NCBI GenBank assembly: GCA_017411605.1
Contig: JAFQPR010000009.1
Span: 13,814 to 77,813 of the forward strand
Direction of reading: 5' to 3'
Length of the DNA: 64,000 nt
Source: Clostridia bacterium
Lineage (GTDB): Bacteria; Bacillota; Clostridia; Oscillospirales; CAG-272
Both the position numbers and the translations under genes were made by a program. The notes beneath the pieces were generated by a model. That model did not search any database. It was given only the letters and a program-made list of their open reading frames with translations, and was not told the origin of the DNA. Below are positions 16,639 through 61,400 of this stretch, piece after piece (positions within the stretch are counted from its first letter, which is position 1; every line of letters begins with the position of its first letter).

Positions 16639-16670
16639 GTTGTAATAGCGTGTTACTAAGGGGGAAATGA
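16461..16670 (+). pseudogene. Truncated duplicate of the giant-protein 5' end (signal peptide plus about 30 aa), 69-aa relic ORF
   Basis: 59 codons near-identical to 20731-20908, then divergence and a stop. The stop overlaps the ATG of the next gene. Confidence 0.7.
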
Positions 16671-18643
16671 ATATGAAAAGTTATTGGATATGGCATTATG
16701 GCGAATATGAAATTTTTCACACTATGAATGTTCATTTAAGAAGGGAAACCCGAGGATATCATATTCCTGCTTATTGGAAACTGTGTACACCTTATGCCTC
16801 GGTTAAATTTAGAAAACAAGTAAATTCAGAAGGTGGATATCTTCTTTGTTGCATAAACGGAAGCGGTTGTGTTTCCATCGACGGAAACCTGTATGATCCC
16901 GGAAAGCGTATTGAAATCGCACCCGGACTCCATACCGTTGATATTTGTGTTTCCAATTTCGGGGGGCTTCCCGCAGTATTTATAGAAAGTGATATTTGTC
17001 CAAGTGACGCAACTTGGAGTTGTAACCATTATGCAGGGGATTTCTCTCCCGTCGGTTATCATCCTTTTTTTGATGACGTTGCTAAAAACCCGGAGGTGTT
17101 TCCCTTTGAATACGAGAGACGCACGCCTATTAATAAGGAGTTGTTGAAAGGCGGTGTTTTGTATGATTTTGGTACGGAGCTCTTTGGATTCCTTAACATA
17201 GAGAATGCAAATGATGGCGAAACTATTGGCGTTTTTTATGGAGAAAGCCGTGAAGAGGCTCTTGATACAGCTTATAGTTATCTTTCGGACTCTGTTTGGG
17301 GGCAAAAGAGTTACCGTCTACGTCAAAGAGCATTTCGGTACGTTTATTTAGAGGGGAATGCTTGTGACGTTGCATTGTCCGCGGATTTTGAATATCTTCC
17401 CGTCGAAGCCAAAGGAACCTTCACGTGCGAAAACGCTCTTTTTAATAAAATATATAACGCCGCCGTCCGCACCTTTCACCTGAATTGCCGTGAAGGCTTT
17501 TTTGACGGAATCAAAAGAGACCGTTGGATATGGTCCGGGGATGCATATCAAAGCGCAAGAATAAACAGATATCTTTTTGCCGACAAGGATATTGAACAGC
17601 GCACGCTGATAGGACTTATAGGCAAGAAGCCTATTGAGCAATTTATCAACACCATAATGGATTACAGCTTGCTTTGGATCATTATGCTGAACGAACACTA
17701 TATGACATACGGGGATAAGGAATTTCTTAGCCGCATATTCCCAATGGCAAGTGAACTTTTGCGTTTTGTTGAAACACGATTAAATAGAGATGGATTTATC
17801 GAAGGCTTCAAGGGGGATTGGATTTTTGTCGACTGGTCAAATATGGATAAGTGCGGGGCGGTTTGCGCCGAGCAGATGCTGTTGATCGAAGCATACCGTG
17901 CCATGTCTTGTATTTCAATAGCGATTGGCGACGGCGATTGTGATGAGTTGGCAAAAAAAGAAAAAGAGCTTGTTGACCGCGTCAATAAATATTATTGGAA
18001 TGAAGAAAAGGGCGGTTTTATTGATAGCTATCAATCAGGAAAAAATAATGTTACCCGCCATGCCAACATTTTCGCTGTGCTTTATGGGATAGCAAACGAG
18101 CATCAAACTGCAAGTATACTTGAAAACGTATTGAAAAATGACAGTATTACTAAGATAACAACTCCATATTTTGAAGGATATGAACTGGATGCATTGGCAA
18201 AGCTTGGAGAATTTGCCGCACTTGAGGAAATGTTGAAAAACTACTGGGGCGGTATGATAGAATTGGGAGCCGAAACAATTTGGGAGGAATATCATCCCGA
18301 AATGGTTGGCATAGAGCATTATGCAATGTACGGTAGGAAATATGAAAAATCACTTTGTAATGCATGGGGCGCAGGACCTGTATACATTTTTGGAAGATAC
18401 TATTTGGGGGTATATGCAACGAAGCCGGGTTATGAAGCTTTTGAGGTCGCTCCGCAGCTTGGCGGTCTTTCTGAAATCAACGGTACTGTACCAATCAACG
18501 GAGGCTTGGTTAAGGTAAGCCTAAATTCAAAAACTTTGTCGGTTATCGCAACGAAATCAGGCGGGACGTTGATATGGAAGGGAAAACGATATTCCTTGAT
18601 GCCGGATCAGCCGATTATGCTTGTGAATAACGATAAAACTTGA
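16667..18643 (+). CDS. (alpha/alpha)6 six-hairpin glycosidase, GH78 alpha-L-rhamnosidase-like
   Basis: DGIKRDRWIWSGDA matches the D-x-P-x-R-[DE]-x-x-x-W-x-G-D block of the Bac_rhamnosid6H domain. No signal peptide. The alternative ATG at 16673 has better spacing to the GGGGGA RBS. Confidence 0.7.
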   Translation: MNMKSYWIWHYGEYEIFHTMNVHLRRETRGYHIPAYWKLCTPYASVKFRKQVNSEGGYLLCCINGSGCVSIDGNLYDPGKRIEIAPGLHTVDICVSNFGGLPAVFIESDICPSDATWSCNHYAGDFSPVGYHPFFDDVAKNPEVFPFEYERRTPINKELLKGGVLYDFGTELFGFLNIENANDGETIGVFYGESREEALDTAYSYLSDSVWGQKSYRLRQRAFRYVYLEGNACDVALSADFEYLPVEAKGTFTCENALFNKIYNAAVRTFHLNCREGFFDGIKRDRWIWSGDAYQSARINRYLFADKDIEQRTLIGLIGKKPIEQFINTIMDYSLLWIIMLNEHYMTYGDKEFLSRIFPMASELLRFVETRLNRDGFIEGFKGDWIFVDWSNMDKCGAVCAEQMLLIEAYRAMSCISIAIGDGDCDELAKKEKELVDRVNKYYWNEEKGGFIDSYQSGKNNVTRHANIFAVLYGIANEHQTASILENVLKNDSITKITTPYFEGYELDALAKLGEFAALEEMLKNYWGGMIELGAETIWEEYHPEMVGIEHYAMYGRKYEKSLCNAWGAGPVYIFGRYYLGVYATKPGYEAFEVAPQLGGLSEINGTVPINGGLVKVSLNSKTLSVIATKSGGTLIWKGKRYSLMPDQPIMLVNNDKT

Positions 18644-18719: not shown

Positions 18720-18963
18720 ACTGCAATAAGTTCTGACGGTAATAAACGTAATAACCGTCAGCGCCGCAGTAGCAATACTCATGCATTCTTTGATAGGAAG
18801 TCCGCAGCAATCGGCGGCACTGAGCTTTTGAGTTTGCAAGAGGAAGAACACAAAGAAGGTGATCATCAGCATCGAAAAGAATACCGCAACGGACAGAAGA
18901 AGACTTCTTTTGCCGTTCTTTTTTTATTCTTCGCAGAGCAATTTTTGTAATAGGTGATATCAT
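18720..18963 (-). pseudogene. Remnant of an FtsX/MacB-type ABC permease (N-terminal 80 or so codons, frameshifted and truncated)
   Basis: MISPITKIALRRIKK then a frame change in the T7 run at 18919-18925 gives NGKRSLLLSVAVFFSMLMITFFVFF, a typical permease N-terminus and TM1. Nothing permease-like remains beyond about 18720. ATGA overlap with the ATPase stop. Confidence 0.55.
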
Positions 18964-19630
18964 TGCCTCCTATCGCTCACGATCGCTCCGTCTGAAATCG
19001 TGATAACTCTTTTTGCCTCGCGCGCCACCGCGTCGCTGTGCGTTACTACAAGAACGGTTATTTTATGCTCTTCGTTCATAGTTTTGAGCAAGCGCATGAT
19101 CTCGGCGCTGCTCTCGCTGTCAAGATTGCCCGTGGGCTCGTCCGCAAGGATGAGGCGAGGCCTGTTAAACAACGCTCGCGCGATTGCAACCCTCTGTTGC
19201 TGACCGCCCGAGAGGGTGCTTGGGTATGCTTGCTCGCGCCCGTCAAGACCTACTGTCTTTAAAATTTCCGAGAGCCACGAGCCATCCACCTCTCTTCCGT
19301 CAAGCTCGGTGGGGAGCGTTATGTTTTCGACGATGTTGAACTCCGGAATGAGGTTGTAAAACTGATATATCACTCCTGTTTTTTGACGGCGCAAAACTGC
19401 GCTATCTTTATTCGATAGCCGTACGATGTCTTTACCTTCGAAAAGAATACTGCCGCTGTCGGGAATATCAAGGCCTGCTATCATATTAAGGAGCGTTGTT
19501 TTGCCTGAGCCCGATTTCCGACGATAGCGATATACTCGCCTTCTTTAACCTGCAGATTTATATTGTCGAGCGCAACGATTTGACCGTCGGCAGTGAAATA
19601 TTTTTTGCTTAGATTACAAACGTTTAGCAT
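18960..19630 (-). pseudogene. MacB/LolD-type ABC transporter ATP-binding protein with a 1-nt frameshift in the Walker A motif
   Basis: ATG at 19630 gives MLNVCNLSKKYF..GEYIAIVG. The frame then breaks around 19514-19520. The next frame reads SGSGKTTLLNMIAGLD..LSGGQQQRVAIARAL..ILADEPTGNLD. Confidence 0.75.
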
Positions 19631-19717: not shown

Positions 19718-20602
19718 TTAATTTGTTGATAACAGTAAGTTTGATGCACGGTATTTGTGCGGAGTGATATGATGGGTTGAGCCGAAGATAGATATAAAGT
19801 ATGAGGTTGTTGAAAAGCCGCAGGCTGCTCCGATCTCGGTGATGGACATATCGGTCGTCAAAAGAAGCTTTTCGCATTCGGCAAGCTTCACAGAATTAAC
19901 GAAACTTGAGAATGACATATTGAGTCCGTTTTTGAAAAGCCTTGACAAATGCGAGGTGCTGACATTGAGCGCTTTGGCGCAAGCGGTTTGAGAGACGGCG
20001 GAGAAGTTATGCTTGATATATTCTATTGCTTTTTGCAACGTGAGTTCGTTTGCGGTACTAAGTTTTCTTGTTGCAAGCTCTGGGGTATCTTGTTTCCATA
20101 CTCTTATCGTATATAGAAACAGCTCCATAACGAAGGTGCGGAGCGCGAGCTCATAGCCGAACGAGCGGTCGTTATATTCATTTAATATTTTATCAAATAA
20201 ATTTCCGAAATGATATGCTTCGGTTTCGCTGCTTTTTAAAACAGCGCGGTGCTTTTCACAGTTTTGAAGTAAAAGAAGATATGAGTATTCGGATAACGTG
20301 TGTTCTCCGGAGAAGATGATGGACGGCAGAAATTTGATAACTACGTATTCGGCTGTGTCATCGAAAAATCCGATAAAATGCGGCTCTTCGCTGTTGACGA
20401 ATATTGTGTCGCCGGCTTCAAGGGTGTATTTGTTTGCGCCGATAATACAGTGGCAAGTTCCCGTGTGGACGAAAACCATCTCGCAATATTCGTGATAATG
20501 AATTAGTCTTATAGATGACGGATCGCTTATCGGTCTTTTGTATTTTTGGCAGTGTATCGGAACGGACAAACCGTTTGACGTGTATTTCGTTTCTTTTATC
20601 AT
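19718..20602 (-). CDS. AraC-family transcriptional regulator (cupin sensor plus HTH)
   Basis: N-terminal cupin-like region (HYHEYCEMVFVHTGT..GDTIFV) and C-terminal double HTH (ACAKALNVSTSHLSRLFK..ITEIGAACGFSTTSYF). Confidence 0.9.
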   Translation of the reverse strand: MIKETKYTSNGLSVPIHCQKYKRPISDPSSIRLIHYHEYCEMVFVHTGTCHCIIGANKYTLEAGDTIFVNSEEPHFIGFFDDTAEYVVIKFLPSIIFSGEHTLSEYSYLLLLQNCEKHRAVLKSSETEAYHFGNLFDKILNEYNDRSFGYELALRTFVMELFLYTIRVWKQDTPELATRKLSTANELTLQKAIEYIKHNFSAVSQTACAKALNVSTSHLSRLFKNGLNMSFSSFVNSVKLAECEKLLLTTDMSITEIGAACGFSTTSYFISIFGSTHHITPHKYRASNLLLSTN

Positions 20603-20908
20603 AACTCCTCCGAGCAGAATTTTGATATTTTTTGATGGTTATATTATATCATACGTTTTCCCAATTTGCTATACTAGAAATGAAAAAAAGCAAAAATTAA
20701 TAATAAATTAAAATTCAAAGGAGAAACGATATGAAAAAAACGGTAAAATTGCTCATTCTCTCGGTTGTTTGTATGCTTGTGCTCTTCGTTCCCATCCTTG
20801 CGATTACTTCTTATGCAAGTGATGACGGAGCCGAGGCGACGCCTTACGGTGACGTTCCCGCAAATTATGCGGATGAGAACGTTTATCCATTCGTGATTTT
20901 TGATACGA
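20512..20908. repeat. Copy 2 of the 397-bp direct repeat (partner at 16242-16638), the functional context
   Basis: Same alignment as copy 1; here both flanking genes continue intact. Confidence 0.9.
20620..20675 (+). promoter_or_regulatory. Candidate AraC-dependent promoter: phased direct repeat plus extended -10
   Basis: TTTTGAT at 20620-20626 and again at 20630-20636 (10-bp phase). TGcTATACT extended -10 at 20667-20675 with no good -35. The same elements are present in repeat copy 1 (16350-16405). Confidence 0.35.
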
Positions 20909-23892
20909 ATGGTAAATTTATTGCGGCATACGAAAAGCTCTACGGCCCGAACGGAGGTGGTGATCAATCTGCTTTAAACAAGCTTACGTATACCCATTTT
21001 GCCAAGAAAACCTATAGCTCGGAGAACGGATGGGCGGAAGGTGTGACCGAGCTTGTTTTGTATATGAGACGCGACTATACTCTTGATAGCGATGAGACGT
21101 ATGCTAACCTCTCTCATATACAGGGCAACCTTATCTTCGACCTTGGCGGACATACGATAAATCACACAACAACCTCGTGGAGACCTTTGTTTAAGGCGAA
21201 TGCAAAGGGAAGCTCTAACACCCTCGGTGAAAAAGAGTTTCCGACCTTGATAACCGTAAAAAACGGTAGTATTAAAACCTGCGGTGCGCCGTTGGTTGAA
21301 GTGAGCTCGTATAATTCTACCGGAAACGTAGATAAGAAGAAGCTTGAGTTTACGTTCGATAATATAACCTTCGGTCTTGCTCCCGGTTCTAACTTAGCTC
21401 ACTATATGCTTTGCTTCCAGAATCCCTACTCTACCTCTTACGGGCATAAGACCGCAACGGTAGATCTTATTTTTAACGAATGTACGTACGATCTTGTAAC
21501 TAACTACAACAATAAGTGCAATGAGATTTTCAGAAACACTCCTGCTGAAACCCAGTACGTAAAATGTAACGTTACGGTAAACGGCGGAAATATAATAACG
21601 AGTACTCCGAACCTTAAGCTTTACACCGTAAATACCGACGTCAGCGGCTCTTCGGTTGTTTTCGGAAAAACGACGGGCGGAAATTATACGTCGATAAAGG
21701 TTGTAGGCTCTGCCGCAAAACCGAGCTTCGTTGCATTGAATGCGGACGGAGGAACGCTCTCGTTCGTCAAAATTTCGGAGGATGACGAAGGTGCGCTTTA
21801 CAGATTAAGACCTACAGATCTTGCGAACATAAGCTTCGTTCCTATGATGAGTGTCACTCTCGCGAGCGATTTTATTGCCAACATCTACGTACCAAAAGAG
21901 GATTATCTTTTGAGCCTTGAGCTTGACGGAGTCAGCCAAAGTCTTGAGGCGCTTGAATTGAAAAATATTGACGGCAAGGATTATTATCTTATAAAAGTAC
22001 CGCTTGTTGCATCCGAAGCGGCAAGGGACGTTGTGCTCAAAGCCGGTATTTCTCTTGCGCAAAAGAATGCAAGCGCTACGTTTTCGTTCTCTATCCCCAA
22101 ATACGCAGAGAAGCTTCTTGATTCAGATTCGCTGAACGTTGAAAAGACTCTTATATCCGACGCGCTCTCTTATATAAAATATGCTTACATATACTTTGAC
22201 GCGGATGATAAAGACGAGGCTATAGCCAAGATTGAAAAGGTTATAGGAGATCACGTGGGAAGCCTTGTTGTTGAAGGCAGCGGCGCCGAGCCGACTGAGG
22301 GGCTTTTGGGAGCAAGCTATGTGCTTGGCGCAACTCCTGCAGTAAGGTTCTATATCCCCGACGGCGCGAGTGCTGACGAATATGGATTCTACGTAGACGG
22401 AACGAAGGTTATGGATATATCCGTCGGTTGCAATGATAGCGGCGCTTATATTGACGTAAAGCTTTACGCTTACAAGATGTGCGAGGAGATAACGTACAGT
22501 ATCGGCGGAGAAGAGATCGGAAGCTATCACATAAATTCCTATTATGAATTCGCAAAGACAAAGAATGACAAGTCTCTCGTTGATGTTGTGAGAAGCTTCT
22601 GGATATATTGCCAGAGTGCGCGCAGATATAAGGCAACGTTTTCCGTTGTAAACGGCGAGTTCAACCCTGTTGCTACTGTTGTTAATAAGAACGGAGCTGA
22701 TGCCACCGTATCGTACGTTATTGACGACGGCGCCTGGGGTACTGCGATATTCGTTAAAGAAATGATGGGAATTTATGATAATCTCAAGGTTTCTCACGCG
22801 GTCCCCGCAAAGCAGTTTGCTACTCTTGTAACCGAGGATTCGGATGGAGACGGAATTCCCGAATACGTAATGGTAGACGGCAAATACGTATATGAAGTCA
22901 ACGAAAGTGGTTTAAAATTCTGGAACAGCGTTTTGGTTGAAGGAAAGTGCGAGATAGTTTCGCATACCTTCTCTCACGCATTCTGGGGAACGAATGATGA
23001 CGGCGGAAGCTTTGAGTATATGAAGAACGGTGAGTCCTCGCCTACCGTATCCGAGGTTATGCCTGAGGGCAGCTCGACCAAAGAGATATATGCATCGAAG
23101 CAGATAATAGAAGAATTGTTTGGTGATTACGTTTATAAAAACGAGCTTCTTTCGCTTGTCGATGCCGGAATCTCAGTAAAAACAGTTAACCACACTCTTG
23201 CTGACGGAACGGTAGTCGTTTCATATAGGATATTCTTCAAAGAGCTTTTGGTTCTCGCTTACGAAAGAGGCGACCTTATCAGCGTTCGCGGAACGTTCGG
23301 TTGGAACTATGACCCAAGCCTTGATATATCATCGAAGGTCGTAACGGCTCAAAGATATGATACGTACGATGAACGTATGTCAACTCCCGCTTATATGGTA
23401 GAGTATTATAATTCTAATCCCGACGGCGACGGCAGCGACGACATATCAAACTGGATAGCTTATATTGACAGCGCGATAGAACTCAACGGCTGGGCTTGCT
23501 TCTGTATTCATATGATTGACGATAATGCGGAAAGCGGTCATTATATATATCAGTCGCAGGCTGAAAAAATGTTTGCATATACGAACTCTAAAAACGTTTG
23601 GGTTGCGACGTACACCGAGGCCGCGATGTATTACAGCGAGTGGTCAACGGCAAATATTGACGTAGCGTATGAAAACGGAGCGATAAGCGTAACCCTTACC
23701 GACGGTGAGCGCGATGACGTTTATACAGAGGAGCTCACGGTAAAGGTCAGCGTTCCCGAAGAGTGGCAGAGCGCAAAGTGCGGCTCGGAGTTGCTCACAG
23801 TGCACAGAGATGAAAACGGCGGCGCATACGTTTACGTGAATATAGTTCCGGATTCGGGTACCGTATACGTTACAGGCTTCTCGGCATCGTAA
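20731..23892 (+). CDS. Large secreted or membrane-anchored protein: beta-helix-like N-terminal region, tandem module of unknown function, C-terminal polysaccharide-deacetylase (CE4/NodB)-like domain
   Basis: Signal/anchor MKKTVKLLILSVVCMLVLFVPILAITSYA. Rung-like repeats (NGSI, FDNITF, FNECTY, VTVNGGNI). NodB-like SYVIDDG and SHTFSH motifs around 22700-22990. AAAGGAG RBS. Confidence 0.75.
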   Translation: MKKTVKLLILSVVCMLVLFVPILAITSYASDDGAEATPYGDVPANYADENVYPFVIFDTNGKFIAAYEKLYGPNGGGDQSALNKLTYTHFAKKTYSSENGWAEGVTELVLYMRRDYTLDSDETYANLSHIQGNLIFDLGGHTINHTTTSWRPLFKANAKGSSNTLGEKEFPTLITVKNGSIKTCGAPLVEVSSYNSTGNVDKKKLEFTFDNITFGLAPGSNLAHYMLCFQNPYSTSYGHKTATVDLIFNECTYDLVTNYNNKCNEIFRNTPAETQYVKCNVTVNGGNIITSTPNLKLYTVNTDVSGSSVVFGKTTGGNYTSIKVVGSAAKPSFVALNADGGTLSFVKISEDDEGALYRLRPTDLANISFVPMMSVTLASDFIANIYVPKEDYLLSLELDGVSQSLEALELKNIDGKDYYLIKVPLVASEAARDVVLKAGISLAQKNASATFSFSIPKYAEKLLDSDSLNVEKTLISDALSYIKYAYIYFDADDKDEAIAKIEKVIGDHVGSLVVEGSGAEPTEGLLGASYVLGATPAVRFYIPDGASADEYGFYVDGTKVMDISVGCNDSGAYIDVKLYAYKMCEEITYSIGGEEIGSYHINSYYEFAKTKNDKSLVDVVRSFWIYCQSARRYKATFSVVNGEFNPVATVVNKNGADATVSYVIDDGAWGTAIFVKEMMGIYDNLKVSHAVPAKQFATLVTEDSDGDGIPEYVMVDGKYVYEVNESGLKFWNSVLVEGKCEIVSHTFSHAFWGTNDDGGSFEYMKNGESSPTVSEVMPEGSSTKEIYASKQIIEELFGDYVYKNELLSLVDAGISVKTVNHTLADGTVVVSYRIFFKELLVLAYERGDLISVRGTFGWNYDPSLDISSKVVTAQRYDTYDERMSTPAYMVEYYNSNPDGDGSDDISNWIAYIDSAIELNGWACFCIHMIDDNAESGHYIYQSQAEKMFAYTNSKNVWVATYTEAAMYYSEWSTANIDVAYENGAISVTLTDGERDDVYTEELTVKVSVPEEWQSAKCGSELLTVHRDENGGAYVYVNIVPDSGTVYVTGFSAS

Positions 23893-23920
23893 ATTTAAGC
23901 TTTTCCAAAAGGAGAATAAA

Positions 23921-24055
23921 ATGAAAAGATATGAATCACCAAATCTTTTGGTAGTAAAGTTAGATGAGAGCGACGTTATTACTACCTCCCCGGGAACAGA
24001 AACCACTCCGAAGGACGAGTCGGACGGCATCTGGGATCTAGATCTAAATCTGTAA
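23921..24055 (+). CDS. 44-aa acidic mini-protein, family shared with 61185-61322 (function unknown)
   Basis: Not in the ORF track (under 60 aa). AAAAGGAGA RBS 6-8 nt before the ATG. MKRYESPNLLVVKLDESDVITTSPGTETTPKDESDGIWDLDLNL, followed by a terminator. Conserved core shared with the second mini-ORF. Confidence 0.55.
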   Translation: MKRYESPNLLVVKLDESDVITTSPGTETTPKDESDGIWDLDLNL

Positions 24056-24082: not shown

Positions 24083-24130
24083 AAAAAAGAGCTATGAATT
24101 AAGTGCATCGCGCCATTCATAGCTCTTTTA
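24083..24130. terminator. Bidirectional terminator between the mini-ORF and lysS
   Basis: AGAGCTATGAAT (24088-24099) / ATTCATAGCTCT (24115-24126) flanked by an A-run and a T-run. Confidence 0.65.
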
Positions 24131-35219: not shown

Positions 35220-36998
35220 ATGAATAACAATGTTTGTCCGAGAGCTGAATATCCGCGTCCGAATCTCGTACGTGAGGATTGGCTTTGCCTTAACGGTGAG
35301 TGGGATTTTGAAATAGATCATTCCGTCTCGGGAAGTGAACGAGATTATCAGATGGGATATGAGTTTACCAAAAAGATAATCGTACCCTTCTGCCCCGAGA
35401 GCAAGCTTTCGGGAATAGGCAATACCGATTTTATGAATGCCGTATGGTATAAAAAGAAGATAACTCTGCCGAAGGAGTATGAGGGGAAGAAAATAATATT
35501 ACATATTGGTGCGTGCGATTGGAAGACGACCGTTTACGTTAACGGAAAGAGGACGGTTTGCCACCAGGGCGGATACACTCCAATCCGCGTTGATATTACC
35601 GATTATCTCCATGACGGTGAGAATGTTCTTGCAATAGAAGCCGAGGATGACGTTCGCTCGGGAAAGCAGATCGGCGGTAAACAGTCGCAGCGTTATGCAT
35701 CGCGCGGATGCTACTACACACGTACTACGGGAATATGGCAGACTGTATGGATCGAAGCTCTCGATTCTGCTCATATTGTAAACTATGGCGTGCATTGTGA
35801 TATAAATACACCGTCTGTAAGCTTTGACGTTGAAGTGACCGAGGCTGCGTTTGGAAAGAATATTTCCGCTGTTGTAACATATGAGGGACGCAAGGTCGGA
35901 CGTGGTAATACAACAATCCTATCGTCGTCTGCGCATCTTGATATCGCGCTTTCCGAAAAGCATCTTTGGGAAGTTGGAGAGGGAAGACTTTACGACGTTA
36001 AATTTGAAATTACAGACAACGGCGCTGCGCTTGATTCTGTTTCGGCATACTTTGGCCTTCGTTCGGTAAGAATCGGCAAGGACGGCTTCTTCCTTAACGG
36101 TAAATACGTATTTATGCGTATGGTTCTCGATCAGGGCTTTTATCCCGACGGAATTTATACCGCGCCCACAGATGAGGCTCTTAAGCAGGATATCGTAGAT
36201 TCTATGTCGCTCGGATTCAACGGCGCAAGACTTCACGAAAAGGTGTTTGAGCCGCGATTCCTCTACTATGCGGATAAGCTTGGTTATATGGTATTCGGCG
36301 AGGCAGGAAACTGGGGCTGGAATCACAGCGACGCCGAAAACATTTATACATTCCTTCCCGAGTGGATAGAAGAGATAGAGAGAGATAAGGCGCACCCATC
36401 TGTTATAGGCTGGTGCCCCCTCAACGAAACGTGGGACAGACCCAACGGAAGCCGTATGCCCGAAAAAGCGATAAGACTTATTTATGATATGACTCTCGCT
36501 AAGGATGATACGAGACCCGTTATAGCGAATAGCGGATTCGTTCCTTATTACGATATGTACGGTAAGTCTCTCGGAGCTGCGTTTGATGTTCATGATTACA
36601 CGCAGGATCCCGCGGCGTTTGCAAAGGTATTCGATGAATTGGATAAGGGAATTATCAAGGATCAGCTTTACAGAAATCCTTTATACAATAAGCGTCAGAT
36701 ACTCGATACCTCGAAGAGCATATTCGTCAGCGAATACGGAGGAATCGGTTGGGTAGAGAACGGCGATGGTTGGGGCTACGGAGCTTCCGTTAAGACTAAG
36801 GATGAATTCATAGAACGACTTGAAGGTCTTACCGCTGTTCTTCGTGAAAATCCGTATATCTGCGGTTTCTGCTATACTCAGCTTTATGACGTTGAGCAGG
36901 AAAAGAACGGAATTATGACCTATGAGCGTGAATTTAAATTTGACAAAAAGGTTATTCACGATATCTTCGCCGCTCCCTCGGTTAAGGAAAGAAAATAA
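35220..36998 (+). CDS. Glycoside hydrolase family 2 protein
   Basis: GH2 sugar-binding N-domain (EDWLCLNGEWDF), NGARLHE TIM-barrel block, and WCPLNETW acid/base region. Confidence 0.82.
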   Translation: MNNNVCPRAEYPRPNLVREDWLCLNGEWDFEIDHSVSGSERDYQMGYEFTKKIIVPFCPESKLSGIGNTDFMNAVWYKKKITLPKEYEGKKIILHIGACDWKTTVYVNGKRTVCHQGGYTPIRVDITDYLHDGENVLAIEAEDDVRSGKQIGGKQSQRYASRGCYYTRTTGIWQTVWIEALDSAHIVNYGVHCDINTPSVSFDVEVTEAAFGKNISAVVTYEGRKVGRGNTTILSSSAHLDIALSEKHLWEVGEGRLYDVKFEITDNGAALDSVSAYFGLRSVRIGKDGFFLNGKYVFMRMVLDQGFYPDGIYTAPTDEALKQDIVDSMSLGFNGARLHEKVFEPRFLYYADKLGYMVFGEAGNWGWNHSDAENIYTFLPEWIEEIERDKAHPSVIGWCPLNETWDRPNGSRMPEKAIRLIYDMTLAKDDTRPVIANSGFVPYYDMYGKSLGAAFDVHDYTQDPAAFAKVFDELDKGIIKDQLYRNPLYNKRQILDTSKSIFVSEYGGIGWVENGDGWGYGASVKTKDEFIERLEGLTAVLRENPYICGFCYTQLYDVEQEKNGIMTYEREFKFDKKVIHDIFAAPSVKERK

Positions 36999-38515: not shown

Positions 38516-39361
38516 CTAAGCTTGTTTGTATGCTACTGCTTTTTTATACTTAAGCGGAGTTATTCCGTAGGATGCTTTAAAAAGGGCAATAAAATGAGAA
38601 TAGTCTGAAAAGCCGCTTTCGTCGCAGGCTTCGCTCACCGTTTTGCCTAAAAACAGAAGCTCGGCTGCGTGAGCGAGCCTCTTTTTCTTAAGATATGAGC
38701 CGGGGGAGATAGAAAGAATACTTCTGAAGTGCCTCTCAAGCGTGTTTATGCTGACTCCCGCACTACTTGCGATGTCGGCAACGCTGATGGAGCTGTTTTT
38801 AAAATTTTTATCAATGAAAGAGAGAGCCGTGTCAATTTCCGGCGGAAATTTAAGAGTTTTATCCGTAATTGCGCTCGCTTCTTCTATAAGTTTTATCATA
38901 GTGAAAAAGCCCGCGTATTTTTCCGGAAGAGTGAGGCTGCTCTCCGTCATTTTGTGGCACAGCGCAATAAGCTCATCGCTGCTTGCTTTTGGGAGAGTCA
39001 GCAGATTTGAAGCTCCGAGTGGACGGGAAAAGAATTTTGAAAAGAGTGAGCTTTGCATACTATCACTTTCACTCGGGAGAGAAAAGAGAATCCAAAAGTG
39101 GCGGTGGGGCTTATCCGTGTGATAAATACAGTGGTGATATTCGTAAGGTCTTGTCACTATAATACTTCCCGGAGTTATAGGATATATCCTTTTTTCAACC
39201 ATAAAAGATACGTCGCCTGATAAATTGATATATATCTCGCACTCGGGATGAACGTGTGAATCGTTTGTTCTGTCAGATTCCTCGGGGCGCATTTCGACGT
39301 ATTTTACGCTGAGTGTTATGGGGTCCTGAGCGGGAAGAGTGATTGAATTTGATTTTTCCAT
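38516..39361 (-). CDS. AraC-family transcriptional regulator
   Basis: Cupin-like N-domain plus C-terminal double HTH (IASSAGVSINTLERHF..VSEACDESGFSDYSHF). Confidence 0.9.
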   Translation of the reverse strand: MEKSNSITLPAQDPITLSVKYVEMRPEESDRTNDSHVHPECEIYINLSGDVSFMVEKRIYPITPGSIIVTRPYEYHHCIYHTDKPHRHFWILFSLPSESDSMQSSLFSKFFSRPLGASNLLTLPKASSDELIALCHKMTESSLTLPEKYAGFFTMIKLIEEASAITDKTLKFPPEIDTALSFIDKNFKNSSISVADIASSAGVSINTLERHFRSILSISPGSYLKKKRLAHAAELLFLGKTVSEACDESGFSDYSHFIALFKASYGITPLKYKKAVAYKQA

Positions 39362-39545
39362 AGCGTTTCTCCGTGAGAATATCTTTAATAAAAGTGATAT
39401 CCTCGCTAGCTTTTCTTGCGGCGATTTTTAAAAGTGCGGAATGTTTTTTTGCCTTGTAATGCATAGAATATCATATTTTTTGGTGAAAAGTCAATGGAAA
39501 TATCAATTTTTTTCTGTTATAATTAGTGTAAACATTTTTTGAGAG

Positions 39546-40484
39546 GTGATTTTTATTTATTTAATGCTTTTATGCGCGGCGATGCTTCTCGCGGTTTGCT
39601 TTGTTATCAATAAGCTTTACCAGAAGCAAGCGGGCACGAGTCTTGAGGCGGGACTTGTTTACAACAGTCTCTTGGGAATATTTGCGGCAATCATTTTCTT
39701 CTTTATAGGTGGATTCAAATTCGAGGTAACCGCATTTTCCGTGATTATGGCAACCGCTATGACGGTGGTGGTTATGGCTTATACCTTGCTTGGATTCAGG
39801 ATTCTGAAGAATGGAAGCGTTGCGATCTATTCGATATTTCTTATGAGCGGTGGAATGACAGTTCCTTACATATACGGTCTTTTGTTCCTTGATGAAGAGT
39901 TTAGCTGGCTTCGTACCGTCGGTCTTGTTGTTCTTATTTCAGCCGTTGCGATCTCGAACTTCGGCGGTAAGGGCGAAAAAAACGATATCAAAAGACTCGC
40001 GATGTGCATATGCGTGTTCTTGCTAAACGGATGCGTCAGTGTTATCTCAAAGGTTCATCAGGTTGAAAGTGTCCGTGCGACTGTCGGAGCTGAGCAATTT
40101 GTGATGCTTGCCGGAATCGCAAAATTTATAATCGGAGGCGTTGTTCTCGGAGTGCTTTTGCTTATAAGCAAGCATTCTACCGCTTCATCGAAAAATGATG
40201 AAATAAAGGAAAGCGCAGAGGTAAAACCGAAACTCTTCTCTGCGAAGAGTATAAAAATAATTCTTCCCTTGATAGTAATTGCTGCTGCGGTTGACGGTGT
40301 TTCGTATTTTCTTCAGCTCAAGGGCGCGGCAAATCTTCCCGCAACCGTGCTTTATCCTATGATAACGGGCGCGAGTATGATATTCTCCGCGGTAGCGGAT
40401 TTTGCGGTATTCAAGCAAAAGCCTACGAGATTTGTTGTTATCAGCGTTGCTCTTTGCTTTGCGGGAACGCTTATGTTCCTTTAA
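39546..40484 (+). CDS. DMT-like multi-pass membrane transporter (start codon uncertain)
   Basis: About 10 TM helices. The track start is a GTG overlapping the GAGAGG RBS, so the true start may differ. Confidence 0.65.
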   Translation: MIFIYLMLLCAAMLLAVCFVINKLYQKQAGTSLEAGLVYNSLLGIFAAIIFFFIGGFKFEVTAFSVIMATAMTVVVMAYTLLGFRILKNGSVAIYSIFLMSGGMTVPYIYGLLFLDEEFSWLRTVGLVVLISAVAISNFGGKGEKNDIKRLAMCICVFLLNGCVSVISKVHQVESVRATVGAEQFVMLAGIAKFIIGGVVLGVLLLISKHSTASSKNDEIKESAEVKPKLFSAKSIKIILPLIVIAAAVDGVSYFLQLKGAANLPATVLYPMITGASMIFSAVADFAVFKQKPTRFVVISVALCFAGTLMFL

Positions 40485-40532
40485 GACTAAATCACCTAAA
40501 ATCTATATGATATAATATTTAAGGAGAATGAT

Positions 40533-42458
40533 ATGAAGTTTTTATCGGATAACAAAAGATTTTCATTTCTATACGATAGGGTATCAGCTTTTGACTACCT
40601 TTATACCGCAAAAACCGCAGAGGGGGAAAATTCGCTCGTTACGGAATACCTTTTCGAGGATGCCTTGAAGGTAACGAACTCGGCAAGAAGGATTACGGGA
40701 TTTGATGCATACGAGTGGGTTAATTACTTCGAGAATACATCTGCTGATAATACTCGCGTTATATCCGAGCTTTGGGATGCAGACGTAGAGATACCTTGGC
40801 CTCACGAAGAGCCTCGACGTAAGACTCCGTGGCAAGCGAACAGGAAGTTACATACTATTATACATTCCACAAAGGGGTCATCCTCGGGCCCTGATGATTT
40901 TGCGGATTCCGAGAGAATAATATTCCCGGGAAATAATGCTACGTACCGCTCGAACGGCGGACGATCAAGCGACGGAAACGCACCGTATTTCAATATTAAT
41001 AAAAACGGTCACGGAGTAATCGTAGCTCTCGGTTGGACGGGTCAGTGGAACGCAAGATTTGACCTTGGAACGGACTCGCTCCGCATAAGAGCGAAAATTG
41101 AGGATACCGAGTTCTATCTTTGCCCGGGTGAAAGCTTCAGAACTCTTTCTGTTACCGTTATGAGCTATGAGGGAAGCGTTACCGACGGTCAGAATCTTTG
41201 GCGCAGACTTATGAAGCAGGAATATTCGGAAACGCTTACCCGTGTCGGAAAATTACCTGTTTGCGCTAACTTCTGGGGCGGACTCGAATCTGCTGATATC
41301 ATAGACCGTGTTGAAAAATTCAAGGCGGCTGAGATTCCATACTCATTTGTTTGGATAGATGCTGGATGGGGCGGAGCGGAAACTATGCCGACGTTTGATG
41401 AATATACGGGAGATTGGTATGAGAGAGTCGGAGATTGGAGAGTTAGTCCTAACGTGCATCCGTCCGGAATGGTTGACGTAGCAAATGCTATTCACGATGC
41501 GGGTTATAAGTTCATTCTTTGGTTTGAACCCGAGCGCGCAAGAGAGAATACGGAGGTCGTGAAAGCGCATCCCGAATACTTTTTATCGGATGGCGGTGTG
41601 AACCGACTTTTGAATCTTGGCTGCAAGGAAGCTTACGATTATATAAAGGATGCCGTATTCGGTGTAATAAGAAAGCTTGGCGTTGATTGCTACCGTCAGG
41701 ATTTCAATTTTTCGCCGCTTCCGTTCTGGAGAAGCAATGATAAGGAAAACAGACGCGGAATTACCGAAATTATGCACATCAATGCTCTGTACCGTTTCTT
41801 TGACGAGATGCTAGCCGAGTTCCCGACTTTGATCATAGATAACTGCGCTTCGGGCGGCAGACGCCTTGACATCGAGATGATGAAGCGCTCTTTCCCGCTT
41901 TGGAGAAGTGATGCGCAGTGCCCTGCAGACCCGACGCCTGAAACTACTCAGCTTAACAATATTAATTTCTCAAGGTGGCTTCCTTACACGGGTACGGGTT
42001 GCGGACGTGTTTACGATACATATCTCTGCAGAAGCTCTTATACTATGGGTATGGGATCGAACTTTGGCTTCTCGAAGCACGACGTATTCTATGACGAGCC
42101 CGAGAAGCTCATCTGGATAAAAGAAAGAATTGAAGAGCTGCAGTCAATACGCAGATTCTTTGATGGCGATATGTATCTTCTTACTTCTATGGCGTACGAT
42201 GACGTTAGCTGGTGCGCAGCGGAGTGGCGACTTCCCGCGAGCGACGAGGGAATGATACAGATATTCAAGCGCGAGAGAAGCCCCTTTGAATCCGCAGTGT
42301 TCAATCTTCACGGCATTGACAATGATAAAGTTTACGTTTTCAACGACATTGACGGCGGAAGCTTTGAGGTTGACGGACGTGAGCTTAACGAAAACGGCTT
42401 ATCGCTGATGATATCCGAAAAGCGTGCTGCGAAAATATTCACGTTTAAAGCAAAATAA
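40533..42458 (+). CDS. GH36-like alpha-galactosidase family protein
   Basis: CYRQDFN (KWDxN-equivalent) and IIDNCASGGRRLD (ExCxxGGxRxD-like) blocks. No signal peptide. Confidence 0.7.
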   Translation: MKFLSDNKRFSFLYDRVSAFDYLYTAKTAEGENSLVTEYLFEDALKVTNSARRITGFDAYEWVNYFENTSADNTRVISELWDADVEIPWPHEEPRRKTPWQANRKLHTIIHSTKGSSSGPDDFADSERIIFPGNNATYRSNGGRSSDGNAPYFNINKNGHGVIVALGWTGQWNARFDLGTDSLRIRAKIEDTEFYLCPGESFRTLSVTVMSYEGSVTDGQNLWRRLMKQEYSETLTRVGKLPVCANFWGGLESADIIDRVEKFKAAEIPYSFVWIDAGWGGAETMPTFDEYTGDWYERVGDWRVSPNVHPSGMVDVANAIHDAGYKFILWFEPERARENTEVVKAHPEYFLSDGGVNRLLNLGCKEAYDYIKDAVFGVIRKLGVDCYRQDFNFSPLPFWRSNDKENRRGITEIMHINALYRFFDEMLAEFPTLIIDNCASGGRRLDIEMMKRSFPLWRSDAQCPADPTPETTQLNNINFSRWLPYTGTGCGRVYDTYLCRSSYTMGMGSNFGFSKHDVFYDEPEKLIWIKERIEELQSIRRFFDGDMYLLTSMAYDDVSWCAAEWRLPASDEGMIQIFKRERSPFESAVFNLHGIDNDKVYVFNDIDGGSFEVDGRELNENGLSLMISEKRAAKIFTFKAK

Positions 42459-53788: not shown

Positions 53789-54604
53789 TTATTTCTTGTG
53801 TAACTTTTTGTATTCGTTGGGTGATAGTCCTGTGTGTGCTTTGAAAACGGATAAAAAAGATGAAAGTGAACGAAATCCCGAATCAAAGCAAGCATCTATA
53901 ACTCGTGCGCCGTGGCTAAGTAAAACTTTCGAGTATTCTACTTTTATACTGTTAAGACGTGAAACGTAGCTTTCGCCTACGTGCTTCTTGAAAATATTGC
54001 TGAAATAAGACGTATTATATCCCGCAATTTTTGCCATATCTTCAAGACTGGGGTTTTCAAAGAAATGTGTATTGAGATAGGCTATCGCGCGCTGTATTCC
54101 CGCATCTTGCGCTGATATTGTTTTTTTATTTGCCGATTCGTTGTCTGCAAGGATCAGACTTAAGAAGCTTTCGCAAAGCTCAACCGAGCATCCCCCGTTC
54201 TCCTTTCTGCATTCCTTAAAGAGAATATCTCCAATAGCGGATGCATCAAGAATTTGCTCTTCGGAAAGTGTGATCGGTTTGGTTTTATCTAAAGAGAAAA
54301 TCTTTGATATCAATTTTGGGGAGATAACCGACGTATCAAAATTTAAGCAGTATGCTTTAAGAGGAGAATGCAATGCGTACGTATGAAAATCTATAGGAGA
54401 AAGTATGTAGGCGCTTCCTCTTTTTATTTCATACTGCTGACCGTTTATAATATGTGTTGCTTCGCCATCAAGCACCAATTCGAGCTCATAGTATTTATGA
54501 GCGTGAAGAGGACATATTTTGTTTGTATATCCGCATCCGATATAAATTGGGATTACGCTATTAGCAGGATTTATCTTGAATTGCCTGGTAATTTCATTTT
54601 TCAT
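53789..54604 (-). CDS. AraC-family transcriptional regulator
   Basis: Cupin-like N-domain (HAHKYYELELVLDGE..GSAYILSP) and C-terminal double HTH (MAKIAGYNTSYFSNIFK..VIDACFDSGFRSLSSF). Confidence 0.9.
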   Translation of the reverse strand: MKNEITRQFKINPANSVIPIYIGCGYTNKICPLHAHKYYELELVLDGEATHIINGQQYEIKRGSAYILSPIDFHTYALHSPLKAYCLNFDTSVISPKLISKIFSLDKTKPITLSEEQILDASAIGDILFKECRKENGGCSVELCESFLSLILADNESANKKTISAQDAGIQRAIAYLNTHFFENPSLEDMAKIAGYNTSYFSNIFKKHVGESYVSRLNSIKVEYSKVLLSHGARVIDACFDSGFRSLSSFLSVFKAHTGLSPNEYKKLHKK

Positions 54605-54747
54605 AAAAGGTTTCTTTCTCTTTTAACTTTTTGGCTTTTTCTCTGCTTTGACAAAATATACTGTATGTTAATTTTATCATAACGAATATAAAATGTCAAT
54701 ATTTTTGAAAAATCCAAAAAAAGTGCGTGTTATTATATACAAACTAG

Positions 54748-54777
54748 TTGCCGAAATATGGTTATTTATTTTAGAAT
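54748..54777 (+). promoter_or_regulatory. Candidate promoter of the giant GH20 gene
   Basis: TTGCCG (54748-54753), 18-nt spacer, TAGAAT (54772-54777); weak call. Confidence 0.3.
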
Positions 54778-54825
54778 AATTACAAAAACAGTTAATAAAC
54801 TGTGTTTTATGAAAGGAGATTAATT

Positions 54826-61188: not shown

Positions 61189-61322
61189 TGGATAAATATG
61201 AAGCGCCGATTGCGATAATGATAAACATTTCATCATCGGATATAATAACCACAAGTCCTATCGGAGACTCCGATGATTACGAGCCCGGAATCGAGCTTCC
61301 GGAGCTTGAATTTCCGAGATAA
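61185..61322 (+). CDS. 45-aa acidic mini-protein, family shared with 23921-24055 (function unknown)
   Basis: Not in the ORF track. The ATG overlaps the TGA of the giant gene (ATGA), and an AAAGGAG RBS lies inside the giant gene's end. MMDKYEAPIAIMINISSSDIITTSPIGDSDDYEPGIELPELEFPR, followed by a strong terminator. Confidence 0.55.
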   Translation: MMDKYEAPIAIMINISSSDIITTSPIGDSDDYEPGIELPELEFPR

Positions 61323-61348: not shown

Positions 61349-61400
61349 GGGGTTAACTCAAGACATTTAAAGCTTGAGTTAACCCCGATTTTTGTTTTTT
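61349..61400. terminator. Strong bidirectional rho-independent terminator
   Basis: 14-bp perfect stem GGGGTTAACTCAAG / CTTGAGTTAACCCC followed by GATTTTTGTTTTTT. Confidence 0.75.

Follow-up and report, generated by a model that had tools for sequence, protein, structure and literature searches.

What is the gene for a peptide of 44 residues doing directly behind the gene for a giant secreted protein in an uncultured clostridium? The question is raised twice by the 64,000-nucleotide (nt) stretch of contig JAFQPR010000009.1 (Clostridia bacterium, GCA_017411605.1, positions 13,814 to 77,813) that was analyzed here and that, as a whole, we call the window. At 19718-24055 and again at 53789-61322, an araC gene on the minus strand is followed on the plus strand by a signal-peptide giant, a mini-open reading frame (mini-ORF), and a terminator, a double occurrence that an earlier note made from the letters alone had placed at exactly the right coordinates. 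In this study, we find that a cassette of a secreted-protein gene and a coupled peptide gene occurs by the hundreds in uncultured gut and rumen Clostridia and is previously undescribed. The mini-peptide is a real product under strong purifying selection, and its first ~20 residues, to judge from their sequence, follow the grammar of a lasso-type leader of the sort read by PqqD-family proteins, the recognition elements (RREs) of ribosomally synthesized and posttranslationally modified peptides (RiPPs).

Mini-ORF 1 (23921-24055, plus strand; type A, 44 aa; MKRYESPNLLVVKLDESDVI / TTSPGTETTPKDESDGIWDLDLNL) combines a leader-like head with a tail that is acidic and contains Trp, and its ribosome-binding site, AGGAG at 23910-23914, lies 6 nt before the start. 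Mini-ORF 2 (61185-61322, plus strand; type B, 45 aa, or 44 aa from a second ATG; MMDKYEAPIAIMINISSSDII / TTSPIGDSDDYEPGIELPELEFPR) has a start that overlaps the TGA stop of giant 2. Neither contains Cys, and no further mini-ORF of the family was found in the 64-kb window. That the same mini-protein family follows both giants, as the earlier note proposed, is borne out by BLASTP (E of 4e-8 across the first 24 residues). A profile search with the two sequences in a set of 5.8 billion proteins returned 713 relatives of ~43 aa, none with a name beyond “hypothetical protein,” and HMMER, run exhaustively over 1.84 billion cluster representatives, returned 731 clusters at 50% identity (E ≤ 0.001); among the 150 matches listed from these, lengths ranged from 30 to 85 aa and none was part of a larger protein. 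The family consensus, M-K-K-Y-x-x-P-E-(L/I)-E-(V/I)-I-x-x-x-x-x-D-(V/I)-I-T-T-S-(P), leads into a short tail that is acidic, rich in Pro, Gly, and Thr, and often furnished with Trp or Phe close to its end. The head is conserved across the family, and tails differ by lineage: PGTETTPKDExDGIWDLDLG in type A and P(I/V)xDxDDYEPGIELPELEFPR in type B. The mini-ORFs match no family in Pfam or NCBIfam, and the motifs DVITTS, DIITTS, TTSPGTE, and GIWDL returned nothing relevant from the searchable literature.

Selection on the peptide can be read from its codons. In a comparison of 36 distinct genes, the Y, P, E, D, TTS, and PGT residues were invariant, with 0 nonsynonymous differences per codon pair against 0.39-0.74 synonymous ones. 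Among 11 paralogues of one metagenome-assembled genome (MAG), DIITTS plus the tail showed 0.41 synonymous and 0.10 nonsynonymous differences per codon, so that the tail is held constant within a genome by selection and not by gene conversion; the strand-like region before DIITTS showed 0.18 and 0.49, respectively. Modeled alone with AlphaFold2 (AF2), the peptide has no secondary structure. A likeness between the head-tail junction (window 23951-24020; ...VIKLxxxDIITTSPGTETTPKDE) and the last beta-hairpin of TRAP (MtrB; PDB 9be8) was considered and dismissed as probably due to chance (per-domain E of ~2). Several peptide genes of the MAG JAZONS are preceded by a repeated AT-rich stretch, ATGCAGAATTCAAAATGCAGAATGCAGAATGAAAAGAATGAATT... 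(L012:9934-10006, L013:17145-17210, L016:9927-10000, and L017:9929-9994), which, if translated, would give an N-terminal extension, MQNSKCKMQNEKNEF....

The position of the peptide gene is as constant as its head. Among species-representative genomes, only those of uncultured gut MAGs labeled “Eubacteriales/Clostridia bacterium” carry type-A peptides, with at least 11 gene copies in JAZONS and at least 7 in JAZRDI. Among the gut-MAG relatives, 44 of 46 peptide genes follow the gene for a signal-peptide protein of 900-2780 aa, the two exceptions lying at contig edges. The distance from giant stop to peptide start is 1-75 nt, or stop and start overlap, and every peptide gene has either such an overlap or a strong Shine-Dalgarno (SD) sequence (GGAGG/AAGGAG) right after the giant stop. 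The reading frames of peptide and giant are related at random (17/11/10), so the peptide is a separate product; a frameshift or read-through fusion to the giant was rejected on the same count, on the peptide genes' own SD sites, and because no fused homologue was listed. In a broader set of 68 metagenome loci, gathered by a scan for EDVITTSP, 43 of the 48 recognized peptide genes likewise follow a signal-peptide protein. In all, more than 100 related loci have the peptide gene immediately behind a secreted-protein gene.

Some loci depart from the usual arrangement. Two consecutive module-bearing giants with a single peptide gene after the second occur at L005:2-9982, L020:3-9983, L121:1-9983, and L042:4627-8176, so the ratio of peptide to giant genes is not strictly 1:1. 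At L027:2585-6792 the order is reversed, the peptide gene standing 69 nt upstream of a module-bearing giant, with none after it; in this giant the module is internal and the C terminus is F5/8-like. The L027 contig may be rearranged or its upstream giant broken.

What the giants share is a tandem module, whose presence in both, claimed by the earlier note, was confirmed by three comparisons: BLASTP of giant 1 aa 452-633 with giant 2 aa 1918-2120 (E of 7e-4), hhalign of type-A with type-B modules (96% probability, E of 1e-9, 222 columns), and a type-A hidden Markov model (HMM) that matches close relatives of the giant 2 module at an E of 1e-15. The type-A module (~288 aa; 21781-22647, plus strand) lies within giant 1, and the type-B module (~aa 1801-2128; 60202-61185, plus strand) forms the extreme C terminus of giant 2. 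AF2 models the type-A module as two units, each a beta-sandwich of 7-8 strands and, after it, a helical hairpin with Y..(S/A)A..Y at its end. A jackhmmer search from giant 1 aa 351-640 found the module in 46 proteins of related loci (E of 1e-51 to 1e-120), and it is present in 37 of 37 nonredundant upstream proteins of gut-MAG peptide loci. It usually ends 3 residues short of the stop in the gut-MAG partners, and where it is internal (giant 1, L005, L007, L011, and L016) a domain of 414-418 aa always follows. Word-indexed homologue searches returned 14 proteins for giant 1 and 10 for the module profile, counts that are no measure of the module's breadth.

The two module types go with the two peptide types. 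Type-B peptides elsewhere overlap the stop of a 2099-aa giant that bears a type-B module, and divergent type-B peptides pair with divergent type-B modules both in the window and elsewhere. Because sequence searches of Pfam and the PDB were empty and Foldseek against the PDB gave only generic Ig-like matches (E > 1e-3), the module is an undescribed domain pair; NCBIfam held no match either. This agrees with the expectation that it would not be an already characterized domain. Identification of the module as an RRE or another known fold was rejected on these same results.

The cargo to which the module is joined varies widely, and here the earlier note needs correction. Giant 1 (20731-23892, plus strand, 1053 aa) begins with a typical signal peptide (aa 1-29, MKKTVKLLILSVVCMLVLFVPILAITSYA before SDD), followed by a beta-rich domain (~aa 33-350), the module (aa 351-639), and a C-terminal domain of ~414 aa (aa 640-1053; 22648-23889, plus strand). 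Its AF2 model, built with 15 sequences, has a predicted local distance difference test score (pLDDT) of 75-90 over aa 33-637, falling below 50 over aa 638-1053. The beta-rich N-terminal domain accompanies the module in other giants, and giant 1 homologues have the first ~57% of the protein in common, joined to other cargo. Giant 1 matches no family in NCBIfam or, even at E ≤ 10, in Pfam, nothing in PDB sequence searches, and only generic Ig-like folds in Foldseek; its C-terminal domain has no Polysacc_deac_1 (NodB homology) match at E ≤ 10 and no PDB sequence match. The short motifs VIDDG and SHTFSH are the sole reminiscence of carbohydrate esterase family 4 (CE4).

Giant 2 (54802-61188, plus strand) measures 2128 aa from a GTG or 2120 aa from the ATG at 54826 (MKVKTK), the start in other sources' gene calls, and consists of a signal peptide, GH20b and GH20 domains, four F5/8 type C domains, a Cys-rich mini-domain, and the type-B module. 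Its Glyco_hydro_20b (E of 5e-21) and Glyco_hydro_20 (E of 8e-24) matches are above the Pfam gathering scores; a FIVAR match (E of 2e-5) stays below threshold at 25.6 bits against a 29.2-bit cutoff. The proposed difference in catalytic domains thus stands for giant 2, with its GH20, and the “beta-helix-like” and “CE4-like” labels for giant 1 were unsupported by the Pfam, PDB sequence, and Foldseek searches. Beside the module elsewhere we found SASA, GH95, GH20, Metallophos, Laminin_G_3, GDPD, Big_5, BspA-type leucine-rich repeats (LRR)/DUF285, or nothing recognizable. Variable cargo on a constant module and peptide is thereby upheld, and the restriction of that cargo to glycan-active domains is not, given Metallophos, GDPD, Laminin_G_3, and BspA-type LRR/DUF285. 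Pfam detected no LPXTG, SLH, dockerin/cohesin, or choline-binding family in either giant, as the earlier note had observed of the obvious anchors, and both C termini are without a hydrophobic, charged tail.

What kind of molecule, then, is the peptide? In lasso leaders a YxxPxL motif is described as “always spanning positions -17 to -12,” and a minority class has Ile or Val in place of Thr as the penultimate leader residue, position -2 (PMC10368454). Counting back from the first T of TTS, the Y stands exactly 17 residues ahead in 250 of 254 family members, and at position -2 there are 177 Ile and 74 Val residues, a match only to the rarer Ile/Val(-2) lasso class. An acidic residue falls at core positions 7-9 in 226 of the 254. 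Against the ~15-26 aa and bulky plug residues expected of a lasso core, type-A cores are 23-24 aa long and contain Trp (24 aa in mini-ORF 1), and some family cores have only 10-14 aa. Core residue 1, expected to be Gly, Ala, Ser, or Cys in a lasso peptide, is Thr in 243 of 254 members.

Gene neighborhoods of the broader family point in the same direction as the leader. Roughly 16 of the 68 also encode processing or export functions: radical S-adenosylmethionine (SAM)/SPASM maturases in 6, PqqD proteins in 5, HprK-like kinases in 5, signal-peptidase-I-like proteins in 5, NTP_transf_5 nucleotidyltransferases in 7, and ATP-binding cassette (ABC) exporters in 9. Relatives adjoin RRE protein, maturase, or exporter genes at L043, L070, L072, L074, L077, L080, L088, L110, L117, and L121, and six of the clusters are putatively complete (L070:256-9673, L072:1-6430, L077:3771-11596, L080:5701-12038, L088:3-11576, and L121:2736-12754). 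In these, the gene immediately before the precursor is the secreted giant, and there is no lasso cyclase. The order at L070, a typical one, is giant, peptide, radical SAM, HprK-like kinase, PqqD, S26-like peptidase, and ABC exporter; L070 and L072 hold all of these plus NTP_transf_5, and L077 and L080 lack the radical SAM gene. The ABC exporter of L121, the one that was scanned, carries a C39 peptidase domain. The best NCBIfam match of the PqqD protein is the lasso PqqD chaperone (E of 9.5e-9, below the family cutoff), and those of the maturase are TIGR04463 and PapB, both below their cutoffs.

The presence of Cys in the core follows that of the maturase. At L043, the distant family member P0255 (core SCGTDTTI) stands before a radical SAM/SPASM maturase, a GT2 glycosyltransferase, and PqqD, and P0235 also precedes a maturase of this kind. 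Cys-containing cores accompany radical SAM genes, with members directly upstream of a maturase at L043, L070, L072, L088, and L103; Cys-less acidic cores, such as those in the window, occur in clusters without radical SAM (L077 and L080) or with nothing nearby. Recurrent-neighbor clustering of ~100 loci yielded no lasso cyclase and no recurrent B2-type protease, nor did the window hold either, and an SGGxDS PP-loop ORF was absent from the ~100 loci except for one protein assigned as ThiI-like by its N-terminal sequence. Since none of the ~100 loci examined has a cyclase or a recurrent B2 protease, the product is not a true lasso peptide, an identification that the Thr at residue 1 and the shortness of some cores also oppose. 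On sequence and gene-neighborhood grounds, the peptide is instead a relative that re-uses the lasso-type toolkit of leader and RRE, kinase, nucleotidyltransferase, and ABC transporter. The label “acidic mini-protein” given earlier misses this key property, namely, a RiPP-leader grammar and relatives in PqqD, radical SAM, and ABC exporter clusters.

A hint as to where the tail works comes from a second kind of protein that bears it. At L065, L068, L071, L076, and L080, small lipoprotein-like exported proteins share an end motif of 10-15 residues with the peptide encoded right after them (L065:10264-10858; L068:1202-1333 plus the preceding ORF; L080:7175-7775). They are 140-180 aa long and have a signal peptide plus Cys and a long Thr/Pro-rich linker. 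Examples of paired ends, lipoprotein against peptide, are ...DKPIELPLVPLR and ...DEPIELPLVPLR and, further, ...ELPDDGLNWSPLVPVE and ...DLPDDGLNWSELLPAD; the motif of the first pair (compare ...KPIELPLVPLR with ...EPIELPLVPLR) resembles the type-B tail of the window, GIELPELEFPR. Display of the motif on the tip of a stalked protein that is exported suggests an extracellular site of action or recognition for the tail. In the DNA of gut-MAG-lineage loci that was searched, no ORF without the head ended in a type-A or type-B tail.

AraC, proposed earlier as a third constant component, did not keep that status. Regulator 1 (19718-20602, minus strand, 294 aa), transcribed divergently from giant 1, has an N-terminal cupin and a C-terminal HTH_18 domain (Pfam HTH_18 E of 6e-21, Cupin_2 E of 3e-9, AraC_binding E of 1e-6), and regulator 2 (53789-54604, minus strand, 271 aa) matches HTH_18 (E of 4e-16) and AraC_binding (E of 2e-10). 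Both AraC/XylS regulators pass the Pfam cutoffs for a double helix-turn-helix C-terminal half and a cupin N-terminal half, and they are 24% identical (E of 5e-13). The 128-nt intergenic region between araC and giant 1 (20603-20730) is a putative promoter region and contains one weak predicted sigma-70-like match (20675-20704, plus strand). Divergent AraC genes stand immediately upstream in ~16 of the 28 gut-MAG loci that include the giant start, and AraC is the only recurrent non-giant neighbor there (26 genes at 21 loci). None was found in the 68 loci of the broader family. A third araC in the window (38516-39361, minus strand; whole locus 38516-42458) points away from genes for an EamA transporter and a cytoplasmic GH36 melibiase, which have no signal peptide and no mini-ORF, and the divergent layout is therefore generic in this genome. 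The survey of co-occurrence thus sustains the pairing of module and peptide (37 of 37 gut-MAG partners) and not AraC as a constant part (16 of 28; 0 of 68, with paralogues ~24% identical). AraC is best read as an ordinary local sugar-responsive activator of glycoside hydrolase loci, and a role as peptide receptor or core component was rejected on the same grounds.

Both transcription units end in intrinsic hairpins. That of locus 1 (~24085-24129; -24 kcal/mol, z of -5.2 by RNA folding) is flanked by an A-run and a T-run and is probably bidirectional, common to the converging lysS gene; that of locus 2 (~61349-61386, plus strand; -26 kcal/mol, z of -5.8) has a 14-bp G+C-rich stem and a T-run. 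Locus 2 was found identical on three metagenome contigs. Next to araC-1, an ABC transporter ATPase is split into two ORFs (19481-19630 and 18960-19484; 18960-19630, minus strand), probably a frameshifted pseudogene, with no obvious intact permease ORF beside it. Two cytoplasmic-looking glycoside hydrolases lie at 16667-18643 and 35220-36998, one alpha-L-rhamnosidase-like and one GH2. These enzymes, the GH20 and GH36 proteins, and the giant of unassigned family mark the organism as a degrader of host or plant glycans.

How might enzyme and peptide work together? Our leading proposal, which we hold tentatively and at somewhat less than even confidence, is that dispersed pro-peptides are handled in trans, cut, and exported and that the tail acts jointly with the enzyme made alongside it, most plausibly by serving as a ligand for the module. 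On this view, a two-gene cassette is spread through the lineage, and each locus would hold one copy, controlled by an ordinary sugar-responsive AraC encoded nearby. The leading gene of the cassette would encode a Sec-exported multidomain exoenzyme with the tandem Ig-like/helical module and the second, a translationally coupled mini-gene, a RiPP-type pro-peptide. One trans-encoded machinery would recognize the common head of these pro-peptides, cleavage would fall close to the invariant site between D(I/V)I and TTSPG, and an ABC transporter would export the product. The short acidic tail with its Trp or Phe would then act extracellularly with the enzyme, most likely by binding the tandem module. 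Such contact would influence whether enzymes otherwise devoid of an anchor are retained, assembled, or released. A separate gene for the peptide would be sensible because leader-dependent cytoplasmic handling cannot act on a chain that is threaded unfolded through Sec, and the tight gene coupling would keep enzyme and peptide output proportional.

Several observations weigh against this proposal. The flanks of ~35 gut-MAG loci (±10 kb) and the 64-kb window are without genes for maturation or export, and processing in trans is for that reason assumed; the peptide itself lacks a signal sequence, nor is an exporter tied to it in the gut-MAG lineage. At least 10 precursor genes per genome, one per exoenzyme operon, is unusual for RiPPs. 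In the module, Foldseek against the PDB recognized neither an RRE-like fold nor any other that binds peptides. Many upstream proteins of the broader family end in a different C-terminal domain, so the universal link is “secreted protein plus peptide” and not “module plus peptide.” Within genomes, module and peptide co-vary weakly (rho of 0.25 for the tail and 0.02 for the head), the L019 and L030 modules are 71% identical, yet their tails differ, and the tails of paralogues are far more conserved than their modules (41-74% identity), so that a single shared partner fits at least as well as module binding. Co-variation was set aside as evidence of contact, being weak and confounded by co-inheritance. 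A more elaborate scheme, unlikely in our estimate, would make the system a RiPP-derived “detachable dockerin,” evolved from the lasso-type leader/RRE toolkit, in which the ABC-exported peptide, or the same motif on stalked lipoproteins, docks to the module outside the cell and controls anchoring or release; Gram-positive bacteria of gut and rumen would then have a hitherto unrecognized means of deploying extracellular enzymes.

An alternative is a RiPP or pheromone that is independent of the enzyme, an exported and possibly modified signaling or antimicrobial peptide linked to the giant by co-transcription only, whose output would report exoenzyme production as a public-goods signal and beside which the module would be an unrelated structural or anchoring domain. 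All of the RiPP evidence, both the leader grammar and the clusters with PqqD, radical SAM, and ABC genes, applies equally to such a peptide, and the near uniformity of tails among the paralogues of one genome, together with their differences between genomes, resembles pherotypes. The poor co-variation of head and tail with the module and the varying C-terminal domains of the broader family fit it as well. Yet the near-perfect spacing of 1-75 nt after a secreted-protein gene, kept among very divergent members of the family and even in the clusters L070 and L088, exceeds what co-regulation needs, the window genome has two very different tails that each go with their own module type, and no histidine kinase or RRNPP-type receptor gene recurs near the loci. 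We regard full independence as rather unlikely, though the most probable of the alternatives.

The tight coupling might instead serve a partner that never leaves the cytoplasm: the unprocessed 44-mer would bind the newly made giant, its head adding a strand to the Ig-like module, as a holdase, a targeting adaptor, or a safeguard against premature folding or activity, by analogy with staphostatins and Spi, which are encoded after secreted proteases. Stop/start overlap and a strong SD suggest stoichiometric co-production, there is no signal peptide and no exporter nearby, and the peptide, disordered alone, has an extended, strand-prone head, of which the chance look-alike in TRAP, by way of illustration only, forms a beta-hairpin. 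However, Sec exports unfolded chains, which leaves a ligand of the folded module with no obvious cytoplasmic role; with cargo enzymes of unrelated kinds, an inhibitor common to all could act only via the module; and operons with two giants have a single peptide gene. The head is, moreover, clearly the same leader as in bona fide PqqD, radical SAM, and ABC clusters, and the same tails occur on exported lipoproteins. We hold a purely cytoplasmic function to be improbable. Far less probable still is a secretion-coupled co-regulator that toggles between the pre-export giant and AraC to give feedback on export, on the model of the type III secretion pairs IpgC-MxiE and SicA-InvF. AraC is indeed divergent at 16 of 28 complete gut-MAG loci and the sole recurrent non-giant neighbor there, but it is found at 0 of 68 broader-family loci, its paralogues are ~24% identical while tails are near-identical within a genome, the same layout serves a cytoplasmic GH36 locus that has no peptide, and its cupin domain is the usual sugar sensor. 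That the ORF is spurious, or a conserved nucleic acid element, we consider scarcely credible. It is very short and unannotated or unnamed in all sources; protein-level purifying selection, strong SD sites, and hundreds of diverse homologues refute a spurious ORF, and no Rfam family matched in the window.

These findings bear on organisms and on annotation alike. The genomes of uncultured Clostridia from gut and rumen hold genes for many giant enzymes that degrade mucin and glycans and that have no recognizable anchor, and cross-feeding in the gut is shaped by how these enzymes are retained, shared, or set free. Two unnamed, widespread families are defined here, the ~285-aa tandem module and a peptide of 30-85 aa (typically ~43) with at least 731 clusters at 50% identity, and the peptide family is tied to lasso-type leader/RRE biology despite the absent cyclase. 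The annotation gap is plain: neither Pfam nor NCBIfam has an entry for the family, and the sources consulted give the mini-ORFs no functional name. Should the peptide prove to be processed and exported, it would represent a new RiPP class whose precursors are dispersed over the exoenzyme operons, one to each; should it bind the module, the result would be a new principle of enzyme display and could be categorically new.

Some known arrangements resemble the cassette in outline. Cohesin-dockerin and other modular glycoside hydrolase display systems of Clostridia likewise combine variable catalytic cargo with a constant, noncatalytic C-terminal module and do without LPXTG or SLH, but Pfam finds no cohesin or dockerin signature here, and the putative ligand, encoded by a gene of its own, is a free peptide. 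Polymorphic toxin/immunity pairs (WapA-WapI and CdiA-CdiI) also place a small ORF in tight coupling after a giant secreted protein. In our loci, by contrast, constancy lies at the C terminus, in the module, and variation at the N terminus, in the cargo, and what the small ORF encodes is not a folded immunity protein but a 44-mer that is unfolded and headed by a RiPP leader; a toxin/immunity pair was rejected since the module is conserved at the C terminus and the downstream product is one conserved peptide family. In the prochlorosin/ProcM system, many precursors with one leader are scattered over the genome, away from the enzyme that processes them in trans. The family discussed here is similar in its dispersed precursors, one common leader, and lack of an enzyme nearby, but its cores are conserved and not hypervariable, each precursor is coupled to an exoenzyme gene, and no enzyme is identified in the lineage.

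The nearest known systems are lasso precursors with kinase and nucleotidyltransferase clusters and radical SAM thioether RiPPs. The former (paeninodin type; Bsf cluster, Firmicutes, Bradymonadales; PMC10368454) share the leader grammar and, with most members of the family, the acidic residue at core positions 7-9, and relatives of our peptides likewise have a PqqD-family RRE, an HprK-like kinase, NTP_transf_5, and an ABC exporter. Unlike lasso systems, the family has, in the ~100 loci examined, no cyclase or recurrent B2 protease and instead a signal-peptidase-like protein, with or without radical SAM/SPASM; many of its cores (10-14 aa) are too short to thread, residue 1 would be Thr, and the precursors are dispersed and joined to genes for giant secreted proteins. 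The latter, the ranthipeptide/sactipeptide kind with PapB- or TIGR04463-like enzymes plus PqqD, are approached by the Cys-containing members that adjoin such maturases, whereas in the SPGTE of the window Pro stands where the SCGTD of relatives has Cys, and no radical SAM gene is nearby. What is new here is the coupling of RiPP-type precursors to giant exoenzymes, an unprecedented genomic arrangement.

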